In this document: one piece after another, positions 801 through 21,121 of the stretch
How the letters are laid out: every line of letters starts with the position of its first letter
How positions within the stretch are numbered: the first letter of the stretch is position 1
DNA from: an uncultured Gammaproteobacteria bacterium
Lineage (GTDB): Bacteria; Patescibacteriota; Patescibacteriia; UBA1558; CAZAXS01
Length of the DNA: 31,123 nucleotides
Direction of reading: 5' to 3'
NCBI GenBank assembly: GCA_964489205.1
Contig: CAZAXS010000001.1
Coordinates: 1 to 31,123 of the forward strand
Translations under genes and position numbers: made by a program
Notes under the pieces: model-generated
Told to the model about the DNA's origin: nothing
Seen by the model: the letters and a program-made list of their open reading frames with translations, nothing else
The model's database searches: none

Positions 801-3800
801 TTAATTAGCGGTTATAGTTATGGTTATATTTAAAGAATAATTACTAGTTGGTTGTTGCGATGGAATTGACTGACTTAAACCAATATTTGTCAAATCCCAA
901 TAACAGCCGATAGCAGCCGATGAATTAGTACTAGCCAAAGTAATTGAATCTACGCTTCCTTCAATGTAAGATGCCTCACTACCAACGGATAATCCGTTAT
1001 TATTACAACCGTTTTTTGGAGTTACATTTGCTAATTGTGGACGGACAGTTAATTGACCACCAAAATTATCTCCATCAGGACCGTCTGAAGCTCCGGACTG
1101 ATTATCATTAAAATCATAACTTCCTGCTGCACTCGTCCAAAGACTGTTTGTGCCGGAAGTTGGCGCTACTGACAATGTCCATAAATTATTCCCCGAGTCA
1201 TTGCTTATTCTAATTTTTTGACTAGAGGCACCAAGAGAACCTGAAGTTGTTTGCCAGACGAATGAAAACGGAACCGTGCTCATCGAAACCGATGGAGTAG
1301 ATACGCTAATGCCCGTATCATCAACAATATCAACAGCCAAAGACCCGCCGCTTAAAGTTGTTTCACCAAAAGATATCGGGAAAGAACCGGAAACCGTTCC
1401 TGAAGAAACCTGAACATCGCTGGTTTGCGAAATTCTAAAAGACACAGTATCGCCCGCATTTGCGTTAGCCAAAATACTAACCACAACGTAAGCACAAACT
1501 TCATCTGTTCCCACGGGCATGGTCCCGGTGATAGTTGCACTTTCGGAAGAAAAACTAGCGCTACTACCAAACTCCGTTTCATTGCCATTATAATTACAAG
1601 TTGGACCATCCTCATACAACAACCTGACGTTTGTTAATGAAGCATTAGCATTAATAGTACCGGTCTCAGTAATTTTTATTGATGTTATATTAGCCGCTCC
1701 TGAACTTCTTTCAAAAACAAAAGCTCCGCCTAAATAAGCATCGGCCGATGGATAACTATATGTAGCAGTTTGCGATCCGTTACCGCTTACTGTTAAAACA
1801 GAATTATCAGGCGTTCTCCAAGCCACATAACGATAGTTATTTGTTCCTGAGGTGTTAACTTCTGCTCCCGTTCCCACCGAGAAACCATTTGATGTGAAAG
1901 CAGTAACAGCACCAGCTATACCAGCCACATTAATAAATGGTATGGAGTTAGCGGTTGACATACTAGAATGCCGGAAAACACCACGAGTCGCACCAGTTTG
2001 TTTAACCCATAAATTATCAGCTTGGAAACCAACGGTAGACACATCTTTTGCTGAACCACTACCGCTATAAGTACCGACAGCAAAATTAGTTCCAGACTTA
2101 AATCCAAAATACCAATAAATATTAGCTGCTGTATTAACGTTAGCTGATGTTCCTATTTGAAATCCATTAGTACTTATAGTCTGTATATTATTAGAGGTGT
2201 CAGCTGTAGCAGCGAAAAAACTGGATGAATCACCACTATGAGAAGAAGTTCTAAAGGTACCACCAGTTGCACCACTACGTTTTACAGTTAACATATCCGC
2301 TTGGAAAGGAAGTCCGGTTATATTAACGTTATCAATTCCATTGCCGTAATAAGCACCGATATAAAAATCTGAAGAACCGCTGTTTGTTTCCGGTTTCCAA
2401 GCATTACCATAAGCCGTCCAATAATAGGTAACACCACTGGAATTTGTGGTTGCGCTTGTACCCACAACAAAACCGTCTTGGTTTAGGGTGGTTATAGCGC
2501 CAGTTAAGTTAGCCGTTGCCGAATCTAAATAAGCACTAGAATCACCAGCCATCATTCTGGTACGAAATACACCCGCTTGAGCTGTATCACCTTTTATAAT
2601 TACCAGATCAGGAACAAAGCCTAGATCGTCAATTGTTTTGGTAATACCAGTACCTGTATACGAACCGCGAGAAATTTGGAATGTACCACTGGAAGACGGC
2701 GTTTTTGAAGCGCCACCAAAAGCAGCGTAAAAATAGGTAACACCCGAACTATTAACGGTTGCGTTTGTACCCACACCAAAACCATCACTATTTAGTTCCG
2801 TAACACCACCCACTACATTAGCCGTATCGGTAAAATAACTGGAATTATTACCATACGATTCGGTTACGTTATAAACACCAGAAACAGCTGTGGTAGCGGT
2901 AGAGTTTTTTGTTAAAACGAAATTAGGTAAAAAACCAACACCGGTTACATTTTTAGCTGTACCCGATCCACTATAAGAACCAACGTTAATTGCTCCAGCG
3001 GTATTTTTAAAAGCAACATAGTAATAAACAGTAGCTGAGGTGTTATTAGTAGCACCAACAGTAAAGCCATCACTATTAAGACTGGTGTACAAAGCACCAG
3101 TTGTATCTTGGTTGGTGTTCATGAAGTACTGACCAACATTAGTTGTCATGGCTGAAGATCGCCAATTAGCCGCGACAGCTGTGGCTGACTTAACCATAAC
3201 CATATCTGGCTGGAAACCAGTGGTAATAGCTCTTGGTGAAGTACCATTACCCACATAACTACCAACACAAAAATTACCACTAGCACTACAGTTAGAACCA
3301 GAAAAAGCTATCCAAGTAAAACGATCATTTGCAACATTTCCATTAGTACCAATAGCCGTAAAGCCATCTTTATCTAACATGATTGTAGCAGAGGTATCGG
3401 CTGTTGCTGGACCAAGATAAGCAGTGTTTAGATTAGGCATAGCTGTGGTTTTAAAAACCGCACCCGCTCCTCCAGTAGAATTAGATTTTAAAATGATCAT
3501 CTGTGGTGAAAAACCAAGACCGGTTATCTGTTTAGCACCACCATTACCAACGAAATAACCAGTTTGAATGTTAAAGGAGGATGATCCGACGGTTGTATTA
3601 GCTCTCCAAGCCACATAACGATAGTTATTTGTTCCTGAGGTGTTAACTTCTGCTCCCGTTCCCACCGAGAAACCATTTGATGTGAAAGCAGTAACAGCAC
3701 CAGCTATACCAGCCACATTAATAAATGGTATGGAGTTAGCGGTTGACATACTAGAATGCCGGAAAACACCACGAGTCGCACCAGTTTGTTTAACCCATAA

Positions 3801-6603: not shown

Positions 6604-7749
6604 CTATTTAGACGACGGTGTTTTTAATTTTTGCCCTGAACGCAGTGTATATGGAGCTTTAATTTTATTAACTTTTGCTAAAAGCTTCCAAGAAACACCA
6701 TATTTATCAGCGATTGTTTTTAAATCATCACCACTTTTAACTTGAATTTCTGACCAGGTCGTTTCAATTAATTGATTTCTTTTTTTGTTCTTGTAAACAA
6801 CTAACAACAATAACCCTAACAAAACTACAATTAACACCTCTATTATTAACGCCGGTATTGTTGGTAAAACAATAAAATTAGCTGACTTTTGGGACAAACT
6901 AATTTTTTGTTGCTCTGAAACATTTTGACCAATTTCAGCCTTTTGATCGTCTTGATAATCAACTGTTAATTCCGAATGATAAACACCACCCCAAAAAGGT
7001 TTTTTAACTTCAAAATTCCACTCAGCCACCTCACCTCTTAAAACTGGAAAAACACCACCTTGTTCCGCGTGTTTAAAACCAAATAAATTTTTTGTTACAA
7101 CCTTAATATCGGCATCTATTGATACATTGCCCAAATTTTTAACCGCTGGTTTTATGTTAATAGATCCATCGCTTTGCCTTTCAACATCCAACGAGCTAAT
7201 TTCTAACTTTTTAACTATTTCTCCTGGTATGGTAATTGCCACCCGCAAACCAGTTCTAAAACTTAGATTAACACCAGCTTGATCTTGGTCAGAATCTTTT
7301 TTTTCCTGAATAACAATACAACCATTATGTTCACCAACAGAAGCGTTTTTAGGAACGTTTATATTAAAATCCACAATCTCGTTTGCACCAGGATTTAAAG
7401 AAACCTCTGAGTCAGCTAATTCAATCCACTCACCGACATCCGTTTTACTTTCAACCATTTGTCGACAAGCAAATGAACCGCCCGACGACACAACCGAATC
7501 AACCGCATAAACTTGTAAAGTTTTTCTTTCCGACGAATTATTTACTAATAAAACACCTTCCTCTTGTTTTTGACCTGGTTCAAGAGTATGAATAAAAATA
7601 GACTCCGTTCTAGAATTATCTTCTCGCGGATAAGCCGGACGACCACCAATACCACCATATTCAATAGCAAAAACAACCATGGAATTTACAGCAAAAAATG
7701 TTGAAGCGATTGCCAACAAAAATAGAAAACGGAGTTTTTTTATTAACAT
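6604..7749 (-). CDS. DUF916/DUF3324-like (WxL-interacting-protein-like) surface protein with a C-terminal TM helix and LysM domain
   Basis: Signal peptide ending VVFA. N-domain F..TLEPGQ....V.LVNNS......VYAVD...W I.L....V.L.PG....V.F.I.VP.NA..G.H.G.IV is typical of DUF916. A second beta domain (VKNLGNV..DA) follows, then a TM helix (IIEVLIVVLLGLLLLVVY) and a LysM (VKSGDDLKTIADKYGVSWKLLAKVNKIKAPYTLRSGQKLKTP). Confidence 0.8.
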   Translation of the reverse strand: MLIKKLRFLFLLAIASTFFAVNSMVVFAIEYGGIGGRPAYPREDNSRTESIFIHTLEPGQKQEEGVLLVNNSSERKTLQVYAVDSVVSSGGSFACRQMVESKTDVGEWIELADSEVSLNPGANEIVDFNINVPKNASVGEHNGCIVIQEKKDSDQDQAGVNLSFRTGLRVAITIPGEIVKKLEISSLDVERQSDGSINIKPAVKNLGNVSIDADIKVVTKNLFGFKHAEQGGVFPVLRGEVAEWNFEVKKPFWGGVYHSELTVDYQDDQKAEIGQNVSEQQKISLSQKSANFIVLPTIPALIIEVLIVVLLGLLLLVVYKNKKRNQLIETTWSEIQVKSGDDLKTIADKYGVSWKLLAKVNKIKAPYTLRSGQKLKTPSSK

Positions 7750-8804: not shown

Positions 8805-9206
8805 TTAACTCAATAGATCAAAACCCTTCTTAATCCTTTCTGGCAAACTTTGATGCCAAAAATCATAATTATCAAGTTGGTCTAAGGTTGTCCAAGCAAA
8901 AGCTATGTGCTCATCACTCAAAGTCACGTCTTTTGTTTTAACAGAAGCCAAAAAGGTTACCGCATAACAAGCTCGATCGTCTTCTATCCAGCTATCAGCA
9001 TCAATTAATTTATCTATAGAGTAGTCTGTAATACCTACTTCCTCTAAGATTTCACGATCTAGCGCCTGTTTCCAATTTTCACCCAGACTAATCTTGCCAC
9101 CGGGCAATAGCCAGCGACCTTTACGGTGCTGAAGAATCAATACTTCATGATCTTAATTAACCAGGACTACGTTCAGGCTAATTCGCAACAATTCATAATT
9201 TGACAT
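8805..9206 (-). pseudogene. NUDIX hydrolase interrupted by one in-frame TAA
   Basis: Nudix box GGKISLGENWKQALDREILEEVG. The frame extends upstream to ATG 9206 (MSNYELLRISLNVVLVN*DHEVLILQHRKG), giving the usual N-terminal beta-strands, with TAA at 9153-9155. Confidence 0.75.
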
Positions 9207-9211
9207 AAAAT

Positions 9212-9925
9212 TTATGCTGACCACTTATCCGGGAGACTTCCGCCGGCTGTTTCGTAAGTATATTTAAGAAGTTTGGTCAATGATTTCATTTTATCTTGAT
9301 TTTTTAATGTCTGAGAATAATTCAAAATTAATTTAGCAAACTTTTTATCTTTTTTGGATATTTTAGATATAACTTCTCGTGGTTGAGTCAGGGTAAGATT
9401 TTTTATTTTACAGAATAATTCTAAGCAATTGTCTATTATCAATTGTGTGTCTAGCATAAATGCCACATTGTTGTTTTGTTCTAAATCGCGCTTAGCTTCT
9501 CCAAAAAAGTCGTCTAGTGAATATAGATGCATTAACACTTCTCGTCTATTATATTTAATTTTTGAAGTTAAGACTCTTAAAGCTTGGGCTTTAAGTCTAT
9601 TAATTATTGTAGATTTTTCCAAAAGAGTGGTGCTATTATAAATCATACTAGCAACAGGTCGTCGTAGTTTATTCTTTTCGTTTTCTAAATACTTTTTAAT
9701 ATCGTTAACTGAGTCAAACAACACATCAATTCTTTTATTTTGATAAATAAAATTTTCTCGATAGTGGATTGGTTTATTTTTTGTAATAATGTAAAAATCT
9801 ATATCGGAATTTCCGTCCTCAAGCCCACGCGAAGCTGAACCAAAAGCTAGAAAAACTAGATTATTTTGGTCAGCTTGATAACGAGAAATTAGGTAGTTGT
9901 AAATTTTTTTGGTCTGTTTATTCAT
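9212..9925 (-). CDS. DNA polymerase beta-superfamily nucleotidyltransferase with a helical C-terminal domain (KNTase-like architecture)
   Basis: FGSASRG..SDIDF motif and a third acidic strand (IDVLF). Start moved to ATG 9925 (MNKQTKK). Substrate unknown. Confidence 0.75.
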   Translation of the reverse strand: MNKQTKKIYNYLISRYQADQNNLVFLAFGSASRGLEDGNSDIDFYIITKNKPIHYRENFIYQNKRIDVLFDSVNDIKKYLENEKNKLRRPVASMIYNSTTLLEKSTIINRLKAQALRVLTSKIKYNRREVLMHLYSLDDFFGEAKRDLEQNNNVAFMLDTQLIIDNCLELFCKIKNLTLTQPREVISKISKKDKKFAKLILNYSQTLKNQDKMKSLTKLLKYTYETAGGSLPDKWSA

Positions 9926-9986
9926 AAAAAAATATTTTTCATATTTAATATAATAACAGAATGTGGATATCAAGACTACAAAATCT

Positions 9987-10052
9987 ACAAATTAAAATAA
10001 AATCACCAATAATTAAATTGATGATCTTATTATGGCTCGGGAAGAGGGGCTC
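9987..10052 (-). repeat. Duplicate of the tRNA-Asn 3' end (20 nt including CCA) plus 46 nt of trailer
   Basis: 66/66 match to 10183-10248 at offset 196. Confidence 0.95.
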
Positions 10053-10168
10053 TTCTTCACCCGTCGCTTCGCGTCCCGCAAAGCAGGACAAGCTCCGCTC
10101 CTCCTTCAGAACCTGGGTCATAAATAACATGAAACTATTCATATTATTTATGTACCCTTCGAGCCCCT
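10045..10168. other. Highly structured ~125-nt segment between the tRNA-Asn 3' end and its duplicate
   Basis: Closing 8-bp inverted repeat AGGGGCTC (10045-10052)/GAGCCCCT (10161-10168), a ~19-bp AT-rich hairpin at 10115-10157, and a small GC hairpin GTCCCGC-AAA-GCAGGAC at about 10073-10089. Confidence 0.7.
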
Positions 10169-10228
10169 TTAATTGTTTTTTAACAAATTAAAATAAAATC
10201 ACCAATAATTAAATTGATGATCTTATTA

Positions 10229-10303
10229 TGGCTCGGGAAGAGGGGCTCGAACCCACGACCCGCTGATTAACAGTCAGCTGCTCTACCACTGAGCTATTCC
10301 CGA
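10229..10303 (-). tRNA. trnN: tRNA-Asn (GTT)
   Basis: TCGGGAA-TAGCTCAGTGGTAGAGC-A-GCTGA-CTGTTAA-TCAGC-GGGTC-GTGGG-TTCGAGC-CCCTC-TTCCCGA-G-CCA. Full cloverleaf with encoded CCA. Confidence 0.97.
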
Positions 10304-10326
10304 ACGCCATATTTAATTTTTAAAAA

Positions 10327-10542
10327 CTATTTACCGCAACCAGATTTATAATATTTTTCTCTTTTCCTACATTTTATTCTGTCACCCACCTTCTCGATAA
10401 ATATAATTTTCCATGGACGATAACCTTTTATTGAAAAAACCCTACCAAAATTACGGTCTCTTAGTCTCAGATTCACATCTTTTGACATTCCAACATATAT
10501 TCTACCGTCTAAAGAACTTATTATTGCATAAACATTGTACAT
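10327..10542 (-). CDS. Minimal GIY-YIG endonuclease (SLX1-like/YhbQ-like small family), probably degenerate
   Basis: YNVYAI...IYVG...RL..RNxG...RPWK....E...REKYYKSGCGK*. The usual HN is RN. The TAG at 10327-10329 is followed in frame by FLK, matching GKKFLK of the intact copy at 14866. Read-through would give 82 aa ending at 10294, inside the tRNA. Confidence 0.8.
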   Translation of the reverse strand: MYNVYAIISSLDGRIYVGMSKDVNLRLRDRNFGRVFSIKGYRPWKIIFIEKVGDRIKCRKREKYYKSGCGK

Positions 10543-10578
10543 ATTTTACTACAAATATTATGCCCCGCTGTTTTTTTA

Positions 10579-10642
10579 AGCTACTCCCTGCCTTCCGTCA
10601 GGCAGGTACCACTGAGCTATTCCCGAACGCCCTATTTAATTT
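10579..10642 (-). repeat. Duplicate of the tRNA-Asn 5' part with a 20-bp palindrome inserted at the D-loop/D-stem junction
   Basis: 10607-10642 matches 10284-10319 (35/36) and 10579-10586 matches 10276-10283 (7/8). The insert CCTGCCTGACGGAAGGCAGG (minus strand, 10587-10606) lies between them. Confidence 0.9.
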
Positions 10643-10677
10643 ATTAGGTATTTAAATATAGTTAGCAATAATCACTG

Positions 10678-10708
10678 CACACCAGAGGCGAGTCCGCCTT
10701 TGACAGAT
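10678..10708. repeat. Degenerate copy of a GC-rich double-hairpin (REP-like) motif in the tRNA-Asn leader
   Basis: cacacc-AGA-ggcgag-t-ccgcc-TTT-gacaga. Shares CCAGAGGCG and spacing with 15120-15149 and 21056-21086. Confidence 0.6.
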
Positions 10709-10757
10709 TAACTAATTTATATATAACAAGAACGTAAACCTAATAAATAGCACGAAT

Positions 10758-10786
10758 AATATACAGTCTATAACAAAATGTGTCAA
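10758..10786 (-). promoter_or_regulatory. Putative sigma70 promoter for the tRNA-Asn/GIY-YIG transcript
   Basis: Minus strand reads TTGACA-17 nt-TATATT. Confidence 0.65.
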
Positions 10787-10889
10787 TAATTATTTTTGTC
10801 AATAAAATTAAGCTTTTTACAATAATTTCTTGAATTTTTTTAGATATAATACTAAAATAGTCTTCATTCAAGATCATTTTGAGGTAAAC

Positions 10890-11111
10890 ATGGAAAGCGA
10901 TGAAAGAGAAATGAAAATCGTACCTTATGAAGAATACATGCGCCTACAAACGGAAATAATATTAAGTCAAGATAATATTAAAAAAGCCACAGAATTTTTT
11001 GGTCATCCTCCTACCAGAAATGAGGCAGCGTGTTATTACATTTGTAGTGGACAGGCAATACAATTTTCAAAAAAATATAAAATATTAGAAAAGCCCTCGG
11101 AAAAAAACTGA
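10890..11111 (+). CDS. Hypothetical protein (73 aa)
   Basis: GAGG RBS 5 nt before ATG 10890 (ORF track starts at TTG 10830). A hairpin AGCCCTCGG/CTGAGGGCT spans the stop. No family recognised. Confidence 0.55.
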   Translation: MESDEREMKIVPYEEYMRLQTEIILSQDNIKKATEFFGHPPTRNEAACYYICSGQAIQFSKKYKILEKPSEKN

Positions 11112-11128
11112 GGGCTCCTTATTACATG

Positions 11129-11137
11129 TGCTATAAT
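11129..11137 (+). promoter_or_regulatory. Extended -10 element upstream of the 37-aa ORF
   Basis: TGcTATAAT consensus, ending 26 nt before ATG 11164. Confidence 0.5.
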
Positions 11138-11163
11138 ATATTCGCTAATAAATTTAATATTTT

Positions 11164-11277
11164 ATGACTATATTTTTCGCTATCGTTTCTTTAGCTGCCG
11201 TTTTCTTTCTTATGGCAACTGTTGATACCCTGAAAAAAATAAATACCAACATAGAAAAAATTGTTGGTAAGAAATAA
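11164..11277 (+). CDS. Small single-pass membrane protein (37 aa), not in the ORF track
   Basis: MTIFFAIVSLAAVFFLMATVDTLKKINTNIEKIVGKK*: a hydrophobic helix plus a basic tail, flanked by an extended -10 and a terminator. Confidence 0.5.
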   Translation: MTIFFAIVSLAAVFFLMATVDTLKKINTNIEKIVGKK

Positions 11278-11311
11278 AAAAAGACCCTAGCATGACGCAG
11301 GGTCTTTTTTT
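11276..11311. terminator. Bidirectional intrinsic terminator between the small ORF and rpoD
   Basis: AAAAAAGACCCT...AGGGTCTTTTTTT with A/T runs on both sides, between convergent genes. Confidence 0.75.
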
Positions 11312-11314
11312 ATT

Positions 11315-12685
11315 TTAGTAATCTTCTAGTTTTCTTCGACTTGGATGATTTTGAATTTTTTCTAATGCCTTAGCTTCAATTTGTCTAATACGTTCACGAG
11401 TAACACCGAACTCCTGACCCACCTCTTCTAAGGTATGAGTAACGCCGTCGGTCAAACCATAACGCATTTCTAATATTTTTTGTTCACGCGGGGAAAGTTC
11501 AGCAATGATTTCAGTAACATGATCTCTTAATAACTGCATAGCCGCTAATTTATCAGCGGAGATTGTTTTTTCATCTTCAATAAAATCACCAAGGGTACTA
11601 TCTTCATCATCTTCGCCCACAGATGTTTCCAGAGATACAGTTTCTTGAGATATTTTCATAATATGCAAAACCTTATCCAATTCTTCACCCATTTCGGCTG
11701 CAATTTCCTCGGCCAAAGGTTCACGTCCTAAGTCTTGTATTAAGCGACGTTCAACTTGTTGGAAACGATTAATGGTTTCTACCATATGCACAGGAATACG
11801 AATAGTACGAGACTGGTCGGCTAATGACCGAGTGATCGCCTGTCGAATCCACCAAGTAGCATATGTAGAAAATTTAAAACCTTTACGGTAATCAAATTTA
11901 TCAACCGCTCTAAACAAACCGATATTCCCTTCTTGTATTAAATCTAACAAAGTCAAAGAACGGCCGGTAAACTTTTTAGCGATACTAACCACCAAACGTA
12001 AATTCGCTTCAACTAATTTTTTTCTAGCTTCCATGTCACCACGTTCTTTACGTTTAGCCAATTGAATTTCCTCATCGTTACTTAACAATGCAACTTTACC
12101 GATTTCTCGCAAATACATTTGAATTGAATCTTGTGATATATCGGTTAAGTCAATATTACCAAAAGTCGGTTCTTTTTTTCTATTAACACCCGTCTTACTA
12201 ACAACTTTACTTTTTACTTCAGCAACAACCGGATTCAACAAAGAAACCTCACCTAAAATCCCAATTTCCCTTTGAACAATTTGTAAACCCAAAATGTCCA
12301 AAGTATCTAGAAAACTTTCAAATAAATCCATACACTCTTCAACGTCACGAAAAACATACATGACTTCTTCCTCTGTCACAAAACCACGAGATTGAGCTTT
12401 AGCAACTAAAGCATCAACTTGTTCTTGAGTTGGAATAAAAATAGGTTCATCTAGTTGCGGTTGAACCACTGGCTTGGGTGTTGGATTTTTTTTAACATTT
12501 TTAACAACTGGTTTTACAACTTTTTTTATCTTTACAACTTTTTTTTCTTTTTTAGCAACAATCTTTTTTTTGGTTACTATTTTATTTTTAGCTTTTACTT
12601 TGGCTAAAGATTTTTTATTAGTTTTCGTATCTTTAGTGGTTTTTGCTTTTGATTTTACAGCAGTTTTTTTCTTTAGAGCTGACAT
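11315..12685 (-). CDS. rpoD: Primary RNA polymerase sigma factor (sigma70) with a long Lys-rich N-terminal extension
   Basis: Region 1.2 [11 protein letters not shown], region 2 [12 protein letters not shown] / [10 protein letters not shown] / [13 protein letters not shown], region 3 RTIRIPVHM, region 4 [20 protein letters not shown]. Confidence 0.97.
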
Positions 12686-14739: not shown

Positions 14740-14829
14740 GGAGAGGTCGCATAGTGGCCTAGTGCGCTCGCTTGGAAAGCGAGTAAGGTGTAAAAGCCTT
14801 CGGGAGTTCGAATCTCCCCTCTTCCGCCA
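14740..14829 (+). tRNA. trnS: tRNA-Ser (GGA)
   Basis: GGAGAGG-TC-GCATAGTGGCCTAGTGC-G-CTCGC-TTGGAAA-GCGAG-long variable arm (AAGG..CCTT)-GGGAG-TTCGAAT-CTCCC-CTCTTCC-G-CCA. Confidence 0.96.
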
Positions 14830-14865
14830 GCTAAACATTAATAAAAAAACAGGGCATATATTTTT

Positions 14866-15117
14866 ATGCCTTATTTTGTCTATATTTTAAAAAGTTTAAA
14901 AAATAACAAACTCTATACTGGGTCAACATCCAAAAATCCCAAAGAGCGCTTACAAGAACATAATTGCGGACACAATAAATGGACAAAAGCTAATGGTCCA
15001 TTTGTGCTAATTTATTATGAAAGATTTGCATGTTCAACCTGCGCTAGAATAAGAGAAAATTTTCTTAAAAGCGGAATAGGAAAAAAGTTCTTAAAATTAC
15101 TATTAAGTTTACAATAG
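14866..15117 (+). CDS. Minimal GIY-YIG endonuclease (SLX1-like/YhbQ-like small family), intact, 83 aa
   Basis: YFVYILKS...LYTGST...ERLQEHNCG...TK..GPF.LIYYE.F...A..RE.FLKSG.G; the Tyr, Arg, His-Asn and Glu positions of the family are retained. Confidence 0.9.
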   Translation: MPYFVYILKSLKNNKLYTGSTSKNPKERLQEHNCGHNKWTKANGPFVLIYYERFACSTCARIRENFLKSGIGKKFLKLLLSLQ

Positions 15118-15119
15118 TT

Positions 15120-15149
15120 TCCGCCAGAGGCGGGTCAACCCCTGGTTGA
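15120..15149. repeat. GC-rich double-hairpin (REP-like) motif inserted in the T-loop of the duplicated tRNA-Ser 3' end
   Basis: TCCGCC-AGA-GGCGGG-T-CAACC-CCT-GGTTGA, preceded by AGTT and followed by CGAATCTCCC, which are the two halves of the tRNA's AGTT|CGAATCTCCC. Confidence 0.8.
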
Positions 15150-15247
15150 CGAATCTCCCCTCTTCCGCCAGCTAAACATTAATAAAAAAACAGGGCTTAT
15201 ATTTCTATGCCTTATTTTGTCTATATTTTAAAAAGTTTAAAAAATAA
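15150..15247 (+). repeat. Duplicate of the tRNA-Ser 3' end, trailer and first ~13 codons of the GIY-YIG gene
   Basis: 96/98 match to 14809-14906 at offset 341. Confidence 0.95.
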
Positions 15248-20929: not shown

Positions 20930-21005
20930 TGGTGCGTCCAGTAGGAATCGAACCTACGACCATTTGCTTAAAAGGCAACTGCTCTACCGACTGAGCTATG
21001 GACGC
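20930..21005 (-). tRNA. trnK: tRNA-Lys (TTT)
   Basis: GCGTCCA-TAGCTCAGTCGGTAGAGC-A-GTTGC-CTTTTAA-GCAAA-TGGTC-GTAGG-TTCGATT-CCTAC-TGGACGC-A-CCA. Confidence 0.97.
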
Positions 21006-21055
21006 GAATAGATTAAATTATTGTAAATGTTTGAATGACTAATGATAACCAACTG

Positions 21056-21086
21056 TCCGCCAGAGGCGTGTCAACTTCTAGTTAAA
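21056..21086. repeat. Degenerate copy of the double-hairpin motif in the tRNA-Lys leader
   Basis: TCCGCC-AGA-GGCGTG-T-CAACT-TCT-AGTTAA, colinear with 15120-15149. Confidence 0.7.
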
Positions 21087-21121
21087 GCTATGGAACCGCG
21101 TAAATAGAAACAACGGATAAA

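Follow-up and report, generated by a model that had tools for sequence, protein, structure and literature searches.

Within the 31,123-nucleotide stretch of bacterial DNA analysed here (the window, contig C1 of the source genome, G000), an intact tRNA-Asn gene is flanked by displaced copies of its own two ends, with a small gene for a GIY-YIG domain protein lying between the upstream copy and the intact tRNA and a 20-nt palindrome interrupting that upstream copy at the boundary of D-loop and D-stem. On balance, we favor interpreting this locus as a tRNA-linked, free-standing GIY-YIG cassette of the UPF0213 type, similar to the phage endonuclease SegB, in which the repair of breaks would duplicate parts of the target gene and GC-rich mini-palindromes would come to occupy the dead fragments. 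The genome that contains the window (532 kb in 74 contigs, 35% GC, 82% complete) was compared with 40 genomes of the same order, all from other families (41 genomes in total).

Architecture of the tRNA-Asn locus

The elements of the array all lie on the minus strand; in the direction of reading, they are:

10758-10786, minus strand: promoter-like site TTGACA-17-TATATT, a putative promoter that precedes the entire array; at 11/12 matches the best such site in 9800-11400
10678-10709, minus strand: degenerate, older double-hairpin insert of the type called H1 below, followed by CAGTG; aligns with 10 other H1 copies
10607-10642, minus strand: displaced 5' piece, comprising a 16-nt leader and tRNA-Asn positions 1-20; a 36-nt direct repeat of 10284-10319, 35/36 identical (97%)
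10587-10606, minus strand: 20-nt palindromic insert (H2), after GGTA at the D-loop/D-stem boundary; 2 mismatches to CCTGCCTGCCGGCAGGCAGG
10579-10586, minus strand: resumed tRNA homology, GAGTAGCT against GAGCAGCT in the tRNA (7/8 nt match), covering the 3' strand of the D-stem and the start of the anticodon stem
10327-10542, minus strand: small GIY-YIG open reading frame (ORF) of 71 amino acids (aa), UPF0213-like, matching PF01541 and probably decaying, between the 5' piece and the intact tRNA-Asn
10304-10319, minus strand: leader of the intact tRNA-Asn, the second copy of the 16-nt leader within the 36-nt repeat
10229-10303, minus strand: intact tRNA-Asn(GTT) with encoded CCA, found by ARAGORN and Rfam (68.5 bits, full length)
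10183-10248, minus strand: first copy of a 66-nt repeat, comprising the last 20 nt of tRNA-Asn and a 46-nt trailer; 100% identical to 9987-10052
10053-10182, minus strand: insert Y, structured and GC-rich, 130 nt, which separates the two 66-nt copies and begins with an inverted fragment of the T-arm at 10158-10168 (antisense to tRNA positions 53-63)
9987-10052, minus strand: displaced 3' piece, comprising tRNA-Asn positions 56-75 and the 46-nt trailer; 100% identical to 10183-10248

The gene at 10229-10303 is the sole tRNA-Asn that ARAGORN detects in G000. Inspection of the broken copy upstream of it bears out what an earlier note on this DNA had described, namely that the 20-nt palindrome is inserted cleanly after the GGTA of the D-loop: once the insert is removed, 27 of 28 tRNA positions match, with zero target bases duplicated or lost, and homology to the tRNA resumes immediately behind it. 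The GIY-YIG gene likewise lies where that note had placed it (ORF 10542-10327), between the broken copy and the intact tRNA. The duplicated portion is, however, smaller than the tRNA 5' half that had been claimed, amounting to the 16-nt leader and 20 nt of tRNA, with 8 nt more after the insert. The description of the insert as a 20-bp palindrome stands insofar as a hairpin is present (predicted RNA fold of 10606-10587, -12.4 kcal/mol, z -5.6, equalled by 0/200 shuffles), but the window's copy is imperfect and lies two positions off a perfect palindrome. Because a related strain holds the canonical perfect palindrome at the same place (run X3), the H2 of the window has decayed at these two positions. 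Similarly, the TTGACA-17-TATATT site proposed as a promoter is present at 10786-10758, although such sites are no commoner in this region than in shuffled sequence (10 versus 7.8 +/- 2.8). A scan of the locus revealed no terminator-like site between this site and tRNA-Asn. The GIY-YIG ORF may therefore share a transcript with the tRNA, as the note had proposed; among the 23 runs listed, none was of RNA.

Upstream, the second hairpin of the insert at 10678-10709 resembles a hairpin at the tRNA-Lys pseudo-copy described below; this insert and its CAGTG are possibly a still older D-arm remnant of tRNA-Asn, for which the flanking similarity to the tRNA is weak. Downstream, insert Y and the displaced 3' piece together fold at a predicted -63.3 kcal/mol (z -7.3; 0/200 shuffles as good), and one hairpin of insert Y resembles a hairpin in the insert at tRNA-Glu on contig C3. 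A search of 9000-12000 for known RNA families with Rfam, at E-values up to 1, gave only tRNA above the gathering score.

The junction between the 5' piece and the palindrome is not an assembly artefact, because contigs from the runs of three studies span it (X1 over 10424-10819, with 0 differences; X2 over 10529-11227; X4 over 10441-10635). Among the run contigs over the locus, none has a joint that deletes the GIY-YIG cassette or the palindrome; a single low-depth contig of a related strain (n=1) skips 10636-10741, which is a hint only. A simple tandem duplication at tRNA-Asn is ruled out in turn, as the sequences that follow the two 66-nt copies differ and no second GIY-YIG gene lies upstream of the 5' piece.

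The same pattern recurs across the genome

The earlier note had treated the insertion as a single local event, and in doing so overlooked the duplication on the 3' side, two further instances in the same window, at tRNA-Ser(GGA) and tRNA-Lys, and a pattern that extends across the genome. The two additional instances in the window are:

14740-15247, plus strand: second instance, with tRNA-Ser(GGA) at 14740-14825, a GIY-YIG ORF at ~14866-15114, an H1 double hairpin at 15120-15149 and a 98-nt repeat at 15150-15247, 98% identical to 14809-14906
20930-21105, minus strand: third instance, with tRNA-Lys at 20930-21005, a degenerate 5' piece upstream (~21086-21094), an H1 double hairpin at 21056-21085 and resumed D-loop sequence

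The 98-nt repeat at tRNA-Ser(GGA) comprises the 3' end of the tRNA, its trailer and the first codons of the ORF. Defining a self-fragment as a same-strand copy of at least 11 nt of a tRNA's own sequence within 2.5 kb, we found such fragments at 12 of the 23 tRNAs that ARAGORN reports in G000. Matches lying no more than 1 kb from tRNAs number 19 in 40,118 bp (474/Mb), as against 102 elsewhere (8.4/Mb), which is a 57-fold higher density. The polarity of the fragments is strict, in that those starting at tRNA position 1 all lie upstream (8/8) and those reaching the 3' end all lie downstream (8/8). When their pieces are chained, the outer copies read as tRNA sequence that inserts interrupt, precisely and at a small set of sites (12/13, 21/22, the anticodon loop and the T-loop at 55/56). 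The outer copy of tRNA-Ala(GGC), for instance, runs from 50 to 56, through a 32-nt insert, and on from 57 to 77. The outer copy of tRNA-Arg(TCT) is complete: after positions 1-12 comes a unit with the intact tRNA inside and H1-like hairpins at its borders, and after this unit come positions 13-75 with four further inserts. The resumption of homology at this locus is longer than at tRNA-Asn (14 nt, 12 identical). Wherever the tRNA was identified in G000, an intact copy adjoins the interrupted one.

The GIY-YIG genes of G000 occupy corresponding positions. PF01541 has five matches in the genome, four in small ORFs and one in an ORF of 445 aa that we take, on its size, to be UvrC-like. All four small ORFs lie between a tRNA (Asn, Ser-GGA, His or Val-GAC) and a displaced piece of that same tRNA, and they have a common short motif upstream of the start codon. 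Sequences resembling this motif also occur on contig C56 (200-520, locus L286), where they form ~35-nt inverted repeats on either side of an intact tRNA-Asp; the arrangement looks as if it were a cassette derivative that has no ORF and has kept both ends.

Filled and empty sites in related genomes

The rpoD and dnaG genes that adjoin the tRNA-Asn locus in the window are of bacterial type, and the order dnaG-rpoD-tRNA-Asn is syntenic in G000, G006 and G010. Examination of the interval between rpoD and tRNA-Asn reveals a gap of 3 nt in G010, ~90 nt in G019 and 1,011 nt in G000, such that G010 and G019 represent empty sites and G000 and G006 filled ones. The cassette is thus present patchily at a conserved site, as is expected of homing genes. 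Small GIY-YIG genes occur in 35 of the 41 genomes, at 1-17 per genome, and are lacking from the other six. The 30 loci inspected hold 32 GIY-YIG domains, of which 28 are no more than 300 nt from a tRNA and 21 no more than 100 nt; the strand agrees with that of the tRNA for 30 of 31, and the tRNAs concerned are of many types.

The tRNA-Asn loci of these relatives vary on a common plan. In G003, an outer copy made up of positions 1-21, H2 and positions 22-28 is followed by a short unit with complementary leader and trailer around the intact gene, and by outer positions 42-75 on the 3' side. G006 has an interrupted 5' copy, in which H2 nested within H2 follows GGTTA, a GIY-YIG ORF 61% identical to that of the window, the intact gene and a 3' piece. 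The same layout is found in G007, with a different palindrome at 21/22, the GIY-YIG ORF and the intact gene, where the contig ends. In G002, we saw no 5' piece and no adjoining GIY-YIG ORF, and H2 precedes the 3' piece. G000, G003, G006 and G007 agree in the extent of the 5' piece, which runs to about position 28-29, and in the position of the insert, at 21/22. The resumed homology that the earlier note had reported behind the palindrome is likewise reproduced at the homologous loci, as GAGCAGT in G003, GAGCGACT in G006 and AGCAGTT in G007. Across loci, the recurrent break points are tRNA positions 12/13, 21/22, ~29 and 55/56, together with the position after CCA; in G027 and G040, a tRNA-Pro is nested in the anticodon loop of an outer tRNA-Pro.

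Four relatives were compared in depth alongside G000 to contrast affected with clean genomes, which are kin and hence not independent; of these, G011 and G031 belong to one genus and have nearly equal GC content. The four relatives compare as follows:

G010: no small GIY-YIG genes (0); self-fragments at 0/36 tRNAs; 1 GC-rich perfect hairpin near tRNAs; 1 Y1 transposase
G011: no small GIY-YIG genes (0); self-fragments at 0/37 tRNAs; 2 GC-rich perfect hairpins near tRNAs; 0 Y1 transposases
G003: 9 small GIY-YIG genes; self-fragments at 18/39 tRNAs; 32 GC-rich perfect hairpins near tRNAs; 0 Y1 transposases
G031: 17 small GIY-YIG genes; self-fragments at 13/31 tRNAs; 26 GC-rich perfect hairpins near tRNAs; 0 Y1 transposases

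In G000 and the GIY-bearing relatives, roughly half of the tRNA genes share the traits described: a small GIY-YIG gene no more than ~100 nt away on the same strand, 5' pieces that are invariably upstream and 3' pieces that are invariably downstream, and mini-hairpins whose insertion neither added nor removed target bases. A further configuration appears downstream of tRNA-Asn in G033 (contig C14, locus L010), where three tandem units of ~55 nt, each with a short copy of the tRNA-Asn 3' end, are followed by a GIY-YIG ORF. This array is a tandem-array form of the same phenomenon.

The GIY-YIG protein belongs to the UPF0213 branch

The protein encoded in the window matches PF01541, the profile of the GIY-YIG catalytic domain, over residues 1-67 of its 71 (E 1.1e-11, 45.3 bits against a cut-off of 22.6), and is on this basis a member of the GIY-YIG superfamily. 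It consists of the GIY-YIG catalytic domain alone, and the related ORFs span 71-100 aa. A profile built from 10 members and compared with the PDB matched the UPF0213 proteins 1ywl and 1zg2 at E 4e-14, SLX1 at 1e-5 to 3e-4 and I-TevI at 7e-4; with UPF0213 proteins as the closest solved relatives and no extra domain, the family falls in the UPF0213 (YhbQ-like) branch. The NCBIfam model of group I intron endonucleases matched only far below its cut-off. Both of the matched UPF0213 entries are titled only as hypothetical proteins, and to our knowledge no function has been assigned to UPF0213 (YhbQ-like) proteins. The kinship with SLX1 suggests structure-specific cutting by a protein that consists of the domain only.

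The invariant residues Y16, G18, R26, E50, R61 and E62 are all present in the window protein. Alignment with nine relatives shows, at the same time, that three of eight near-invariant columns differ (those of R30, T38/I38 and A58/C58) and that the C-terminal tail is lacking. In the first of these columns, a near-invariant histidine, which we take to be the one that is catalytic in I-TevI, is replaced by arginine in the window protein alone. Because near-invariant columns are changed and the tail is lacking, the window's ORF may be decaying.

Comparison of the G000 and G006 genes indicates purifying selection (pN 0.244, pS 0.686), and the pair is old, since its synonymous sites are near saturation; between these two genomes the GIY-YIG proteins are 61% identical, RpoD 64% and DnaG 36%. 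Traced on a tree of 45 proteins, the tRNA partner switches 26 times, where 14 is the minimum and shuffling gives a mean of 31.8; partners are thus clustered beyond chance yet often switched. A strict pairing of each GIY-YIG lineage with one tRNA is ruled out by these changes. Two paralogues in G031, one downstream of tRNA-Ala and the other downstream of tRNA-Ile and upstream of tRNA-Phe, match at 83% over 251 nt, with homology that begins right after CCA.

Compact hairpin elements occupy the displaced tRNA pieces

The inserts that interrupt the outer copies fall into a small number of types. H1 is a double hairpin of 30-32 nt, made up of an inverted pair of 15-nt palindromic units and found at tRNA position 12/13 or in the T-loop at 55/56. 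The 20-nt palindrome H2 and a palindrome of ~35 nt, H3, lie at 21/22, in the anticodon loop or beside the T-arm. In 11 copies of H1, pairing extends to 90.9% of cells and compensatory changes are seen at 9 of 12 pairs; the observed score was reached by 0/500 shuffles, and slid controls pair at 21-48% only. In several genomes H2 is nested within H2, one base off center. Like the mobile GC-rich hairpin families of mitochondria, these elements are multi-copy, have a conserved structure with variable stems, and nest; we claim no named family for them.

The idea that the palindrome might be scattered genome-wide with no site preference, which the earlier note had raised, does not hold in G000. All six copies of H2 with at most two mismatches lie within 284 nt of a tRNA, two of them at the same D-loop/D-stem boundary, and tRNA genes with 300-nt flanks make up ~3% of the genome. 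(The copies include those at C3:1607 and C10:1584.) Within the order, H2 is present in 24 of the 35 genomes that bear small GIY-YIG genes and in none of the six that do not, and in the relatives 16 of 26 copies lie within 300 nt of a tRNA. Contig C20 of G000 (6800-7000, L288) has a perfect double hairpin of the H1 type at a long distance from all detected tRNAs; the sequence around it consists of degenerate, purine-rich repeats such as GGAATTAGGG / GGGGTTAGG. Repeats much like these flank H2 in an unrelated metagenome-assembled genome (MAG) of Ferruginibacter (L036).

H2 and the cassette layout beyond the order

Across many phyla, species-representative genomes carry the exact H2 pattern, as CCTGCCTGCCGGCAGGCAGG and its close variants, at a minimum of 120 loci. 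The hosts include Bacteroidota isolates, Planctomycetota, Omnitrophota, Nitrospirota, Chloroflexota, Proteobacteria and members of the candidate phyla radiation (CPR; loci L013-L132); by a rough estimate, ~2 occurrences would be expected by chance in that collection. The loci are often flanked by short degenerate tandem or inverted repeats, and the palindromes are often nested. Among the matches listed, only 17 of 127 copies are no more than 600 nt from a tRNA, and a GIY-YIG match is present at only 7 of 120 loci, which rules out that the palindrome is tied to GIY-YIG genes everywhere. Because most of the listed copies are near neither a tRNA nor a GIY-YIG gene, H2 is best described as a widespread mini-palindrome with a life of its own. 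At each of the six listed H2 loci that have a small GIY-YIG ORF, this ORF lies 0-32 nt from a tRNA, and three loci (L037 in a Bacteroidetes MAG, L064 in a WWE3 MAG, and L105) have the full layout of a pseudo-copy with H2, a GIY-YIG gene and a live tRNA. These three cross-phylum loci indicate that the cassette layout extends beyond one lineage.

A proposed mechanism and its precedents

The broken tRNA-Asn copy would be the left-hand scar of a cassette in and around the tRNA-Asn gene. On our reading, the 20-nt palindrome is a separate, tiny GC-rich element that entered the dead 5' piece at a D-loop/D-stem boundary that has been hit repeatedly. In the mechanism that we propose, the GIY-YIG nuclease would break tRNA genes, and recombinational repair would then copy the cassette and duplicate parts of the target, as in the homing of free-standing endonucleases and the SegB-driven amplification of tRNA segments. 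One live tRNA would always be kept, because it is essential, and the displaced pieces would be dead. These pieces match their own live tRNA in both G000 and G006, even though the tRNAs of the two genomes differ and the ORFs are old, a pattern that points to ongoing gene conversion, or to re-creation at the same break points, as the process that would hold them identical. Palindromes would be found in the dead pieces because a live tRNA would not tolerate them, and they could pass between tRNA loci by way of shared D-arm and T-arm sequence.

It is with SegB as the closest tested precedent that we read the locus as a tRNA-linked, free-standing endonuclease cassette. T4 SegB is a GIY-YIG endonuclease, encoded in a tRNA cluster, that recognizes a T-arm motif, cuts near CCA and prefers a tRNA-Asn gene (PMC2330249), and that also drives recombination-dependent amplification of a unit made up of a tRNA and truncated segB (PMC13096335). 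As with SegB of T4 and T6, the GIY-YIG genes described here lie among tRNA genes and on the same strand, some of the cassettes start right after CCA, and the repeats hold tRNA ends and ORF starts. Unlike SegB, they reside in the chromosomes of CPR and Bacteroidetes MAGs rather than in phages, encode proteins of 70-100 aa that consist of the catalytic domain only and are closest to UPF0213 and SLX1, are accompanied by dead target fragments and mini-palindromes, and are known from sequence alone. A GIY-YIG ORF at atp6 of Allomyces mitochondria reportedly carries part of its target gene and displaces the resident end, which is left as an untranslated fragment. As in that case, a live gene is rebuilt here beside an endonuclease ORF and the original gene end is left behind; the target there, however, is a mitochondrial protein gene, whereas here both ends of an RNA gene are displaced.

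The hairpins also have mitochondrial parallels, among which the double-hairpin elements of Allomyces and the palindromes that flank tRNA genes in Neurospora are said to be comparable. Mitochondrial GC-rich hairpins such as the GC clusters of yeast and the repetitive hairpin-forming elements of sponges are multi-copy in AT-rich genomes and located in intergenic regions and variable parts of RNA genes, with tandem double hairpins, merging and nesting (PMC4478555, PMC2800124). H1 and H2 resemble these elements in being short, GC-rich and multi-copy and in forming double units and nests. They differ in being bacterial, in their length of 20-32 nt, in their concentration, within this order, at fixed positions of tRNA-derived pseudo-sequence, and in that the same 20-nt H2 sequence occurs in many phyla. 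Within the CPR, rRNA genes carry many short, unexplained insertions (<200 bp) that belong to neither class of intron, group I or group II, lie mostly at the top or base of stem-loops and in a few cases encode GIY-YIG proteins (PMC11270868). There it is the working gene that is interrupted, and that paper makes no mention of tRNA, whereas here a dead duplicate is interrupted beside an intact gene (PMC11270868). The literature searched, which did not extend to subscription papers or supplements, describes neither tRNA-linked UPF0213 genes, nor bacterial tRNA genes that are nested or duplicated at their ends, nor the palindrome, and the exact 20-nt H2 string appears in no paper of that set.

Several observations weigh against a SegB-like cassette as the origin of the locus. 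We infer the mechanism from layout and co-occurrence alone, and the run contigs over the locus contain no transfer event. The proteins, at 70-100 aa, comprise the catalytic domain only, without the DNA-binding domain that gives SegB and I-TevI their specificity, and the solved proteins nearest to them are UPF0213, whose function is not assigned, and the structure-specific nuclease SLX1. The live tRNA, identical in sequence to the dead pieces, would nevertheless have to escape cutting; leader and trailer are duplicated as well, which simple homing does not predict. As the G000 and G006 copies are old and syntenic, long vertical retention fits them better than frequent invasion. The palindrome, for its part, is missing from 11 of the 35 GIY-bearing genomes and is not bound to the cassette, because the listed H2 copies elsewhere are mostly near neither a tRNA nor a GIY-YIG gene. 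In addition, the contrast between affected and clean genomes draws on four relatives and G000, which share their descent, and the window's own ORF looks impaired, with three of eight near-invariant columns changed.

A more far-reaching version of the cassette model, which we regard as possible but doubtful, would cast UPF0213-type GIY-YIG proteins in general as nucleases that target tRNA genes through their structure or their conserved arms. Together with the mini-palindromes, they would form a cross-phylum system, selfish or part-domesticated, that builds nested 'tRNA-in-tRNA' loci. The nuclease would go on breaking tRNA genes, the dead end-pieces would serve as homology arms that continuing gene conversion holds identical to the live gene, and the palindromes would act like minimal introns that disable pseudo-targets and spread by way of shared D- and T-arms.

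Alternative explanations

The arrangement might instead be a functional RNA design, in which a transcript that includes the live tRNA would also take in the outer 5' and 3' pieces, the hairpins and the complementary leader and trailer, and would fold as a nested tRNA-like scaffold for processing, for regulation (of the tRNA or of the GIY-YIG mRNA) or as a decoy. We consider this unlikely. Leader and trailer of the inner tRNA are indeed complementary, both in G003, through inverted repeats of 14 nt and 6 nt, and at the tRNA-Asp of G000; in G000 and G006 the outer pieces have stayed identical to the live tRNA of the same genome despite synonymous saturation of the adjacent ORF; and the fold of insert Y with the 3' piece (z -7.3) and the continuous run from promoter-like site to tRNA with no terminator-like site would both suit such a design. 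The covariation of H1 stems (compensatory changes in 9/12 pairs, 0/500 shuffles) fits it as well, but the DNA hairpins of a mobile element would covary equally. Moreover, the extent of the outer pieces differs by locus, many of them are without the tRNA middle or have small indels, and relatives with the same tRNAs lack the arrangement (0/36 and 0/37), which is therefore dispensable. To regard the outer copies as intron-containing or split tRNA genes, as in some archaea, with the inserts spliced out, strikes us as scarcely credible. Removal of every insert from the outer tRNA-Arg(TCT) copy would leave a complete tRNA, and the insert sites, at loops or stem boundaries, are similar to those of non-canonical archaeal introns, which occupy loop or stem-boundary positions. 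Yet G000, at 82% completeness, has no PF01974 splicing endonuclease and no RtcB above cut-off, the anticodon arm is lacking in most outer copies, an intact copy adjoins the interrupted one in G000 wherever the tRNA was identified, and one 'intron' would have to hold an entire live tRNA.

Two further alternatives invoke mobile elements of other kinds. REP and BIME elements with their RAYT transposases, and PATEs derived from IS200/IS605, are small extragenic palindromes that insert precisely without target duplication and whose units alternate in orientation. That a Y1 transposase (IS200/IS605 or RAYT-type) acts in trans to move the hairpins here, which would then be REP- or PATE-like, with the GIY-YIG gene a bystander, appears quite improbable to us, even if the insertions are precise and free of target duplication, H1 is an inverted pair of 15-nt palindromic units and in this respect resembles a small BIME, and G000 encodes a Y1_Tnp ORF with the HUH motif on contig C24 and a second at the end of contig C74. 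Presence of the transposase does not follow the pattern: no match occurs in G003 or G031, where hairpins and fragments abound, and the clean G010 has one, such that, unlike in REP, BIME and PATE systems, Y1 transposase and hairpins do not co-occur in the genomes tested, and the hairpins lie inside tRNA-derived sequence. H2 is found, among the 41 genomes searched, only in those that bear GIY-YIG genes, the C24 ORF is without the flanking GC-rich palindromes that mark a REP/BIME-RAYT or PATE system, and the duplicated tRNA ends would be left unexplained. Direct repeats of a tRNA 3' end around inserted DNA are the classic mark of tyrosine integrases, and the perfect 66-nt repeat of the tRNA-Asn 3' end fits an origin as att-site duplications from integrase-borne islands or prophages that entered tRNA genes and were later almost wholly deleted. 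This origin is nonetheless very improbable, as upstream duplicates of 5' ends are as numerous as downstream duplicates of 3' ends (8 each), only ~130-290 nt of DNA lie between the repeats, the break points fall at several internal tRNA positions, and about half of the tRNAs are affected in genomes of ~1 Mb; the ORF lists and Pfam matches near tRNA-Asn include no integrase, though no search aimed at integrases was made.

As to the Y1 ORFs of G000 themselves, both are IS200/RAYT-like with the HUH motif (C24:2890-3432 and C74:1267-1515), and the C74 ORF, truncated where its contig stops, has two short hairpins in front of it.

Implications and further observations

Should the cassette model prove correct, it would provide a first biological role for UPF0213 (YhbQ-like) GIY-YIG proteins, which are common in bacteria and whose structures have been solved. 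It would further mean that the smallest bacterial genomes, in the CPR and at least some Bacteroidetes, hold a system, active now or until recently, for the remodeling of essential tRNA loci, a bacterial counterpart to both the disrupted and nested tRNA genes of archaea and the mobile GC-rich hairpins of mitochondria. There are practical consequences as well: the repeats break assemblies at tRNA loci, as contigs from public runs end at them, and the dead pieces can mislead the annotation of tRNAs and att sites.

Three minor features were seen in passing. Contig C53 of G000 terminates, directly behind tRNA-Arg(TCG), in palindromic sequence (3396-3453) that we take to be Illumina adapter and hence probably assembly contamination. 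In the window, downstream of the displaced 3' piece, an ORF with a nucleotidyltransferase fold (Polbeta/NTP_transf_2) and a NUDIX ORF occupy 8805-9973 on the minus strand, and we saw no link between them and the findings at tRNA-Asn. Finally, a 93-aa ORF without a Pfam match lies at 10830-11111 on the plus strand, between rpoD and the promoter-like site and opposite in strand to the latter, within the ~1 kb that the syntenic G010 and G019 loci lack.

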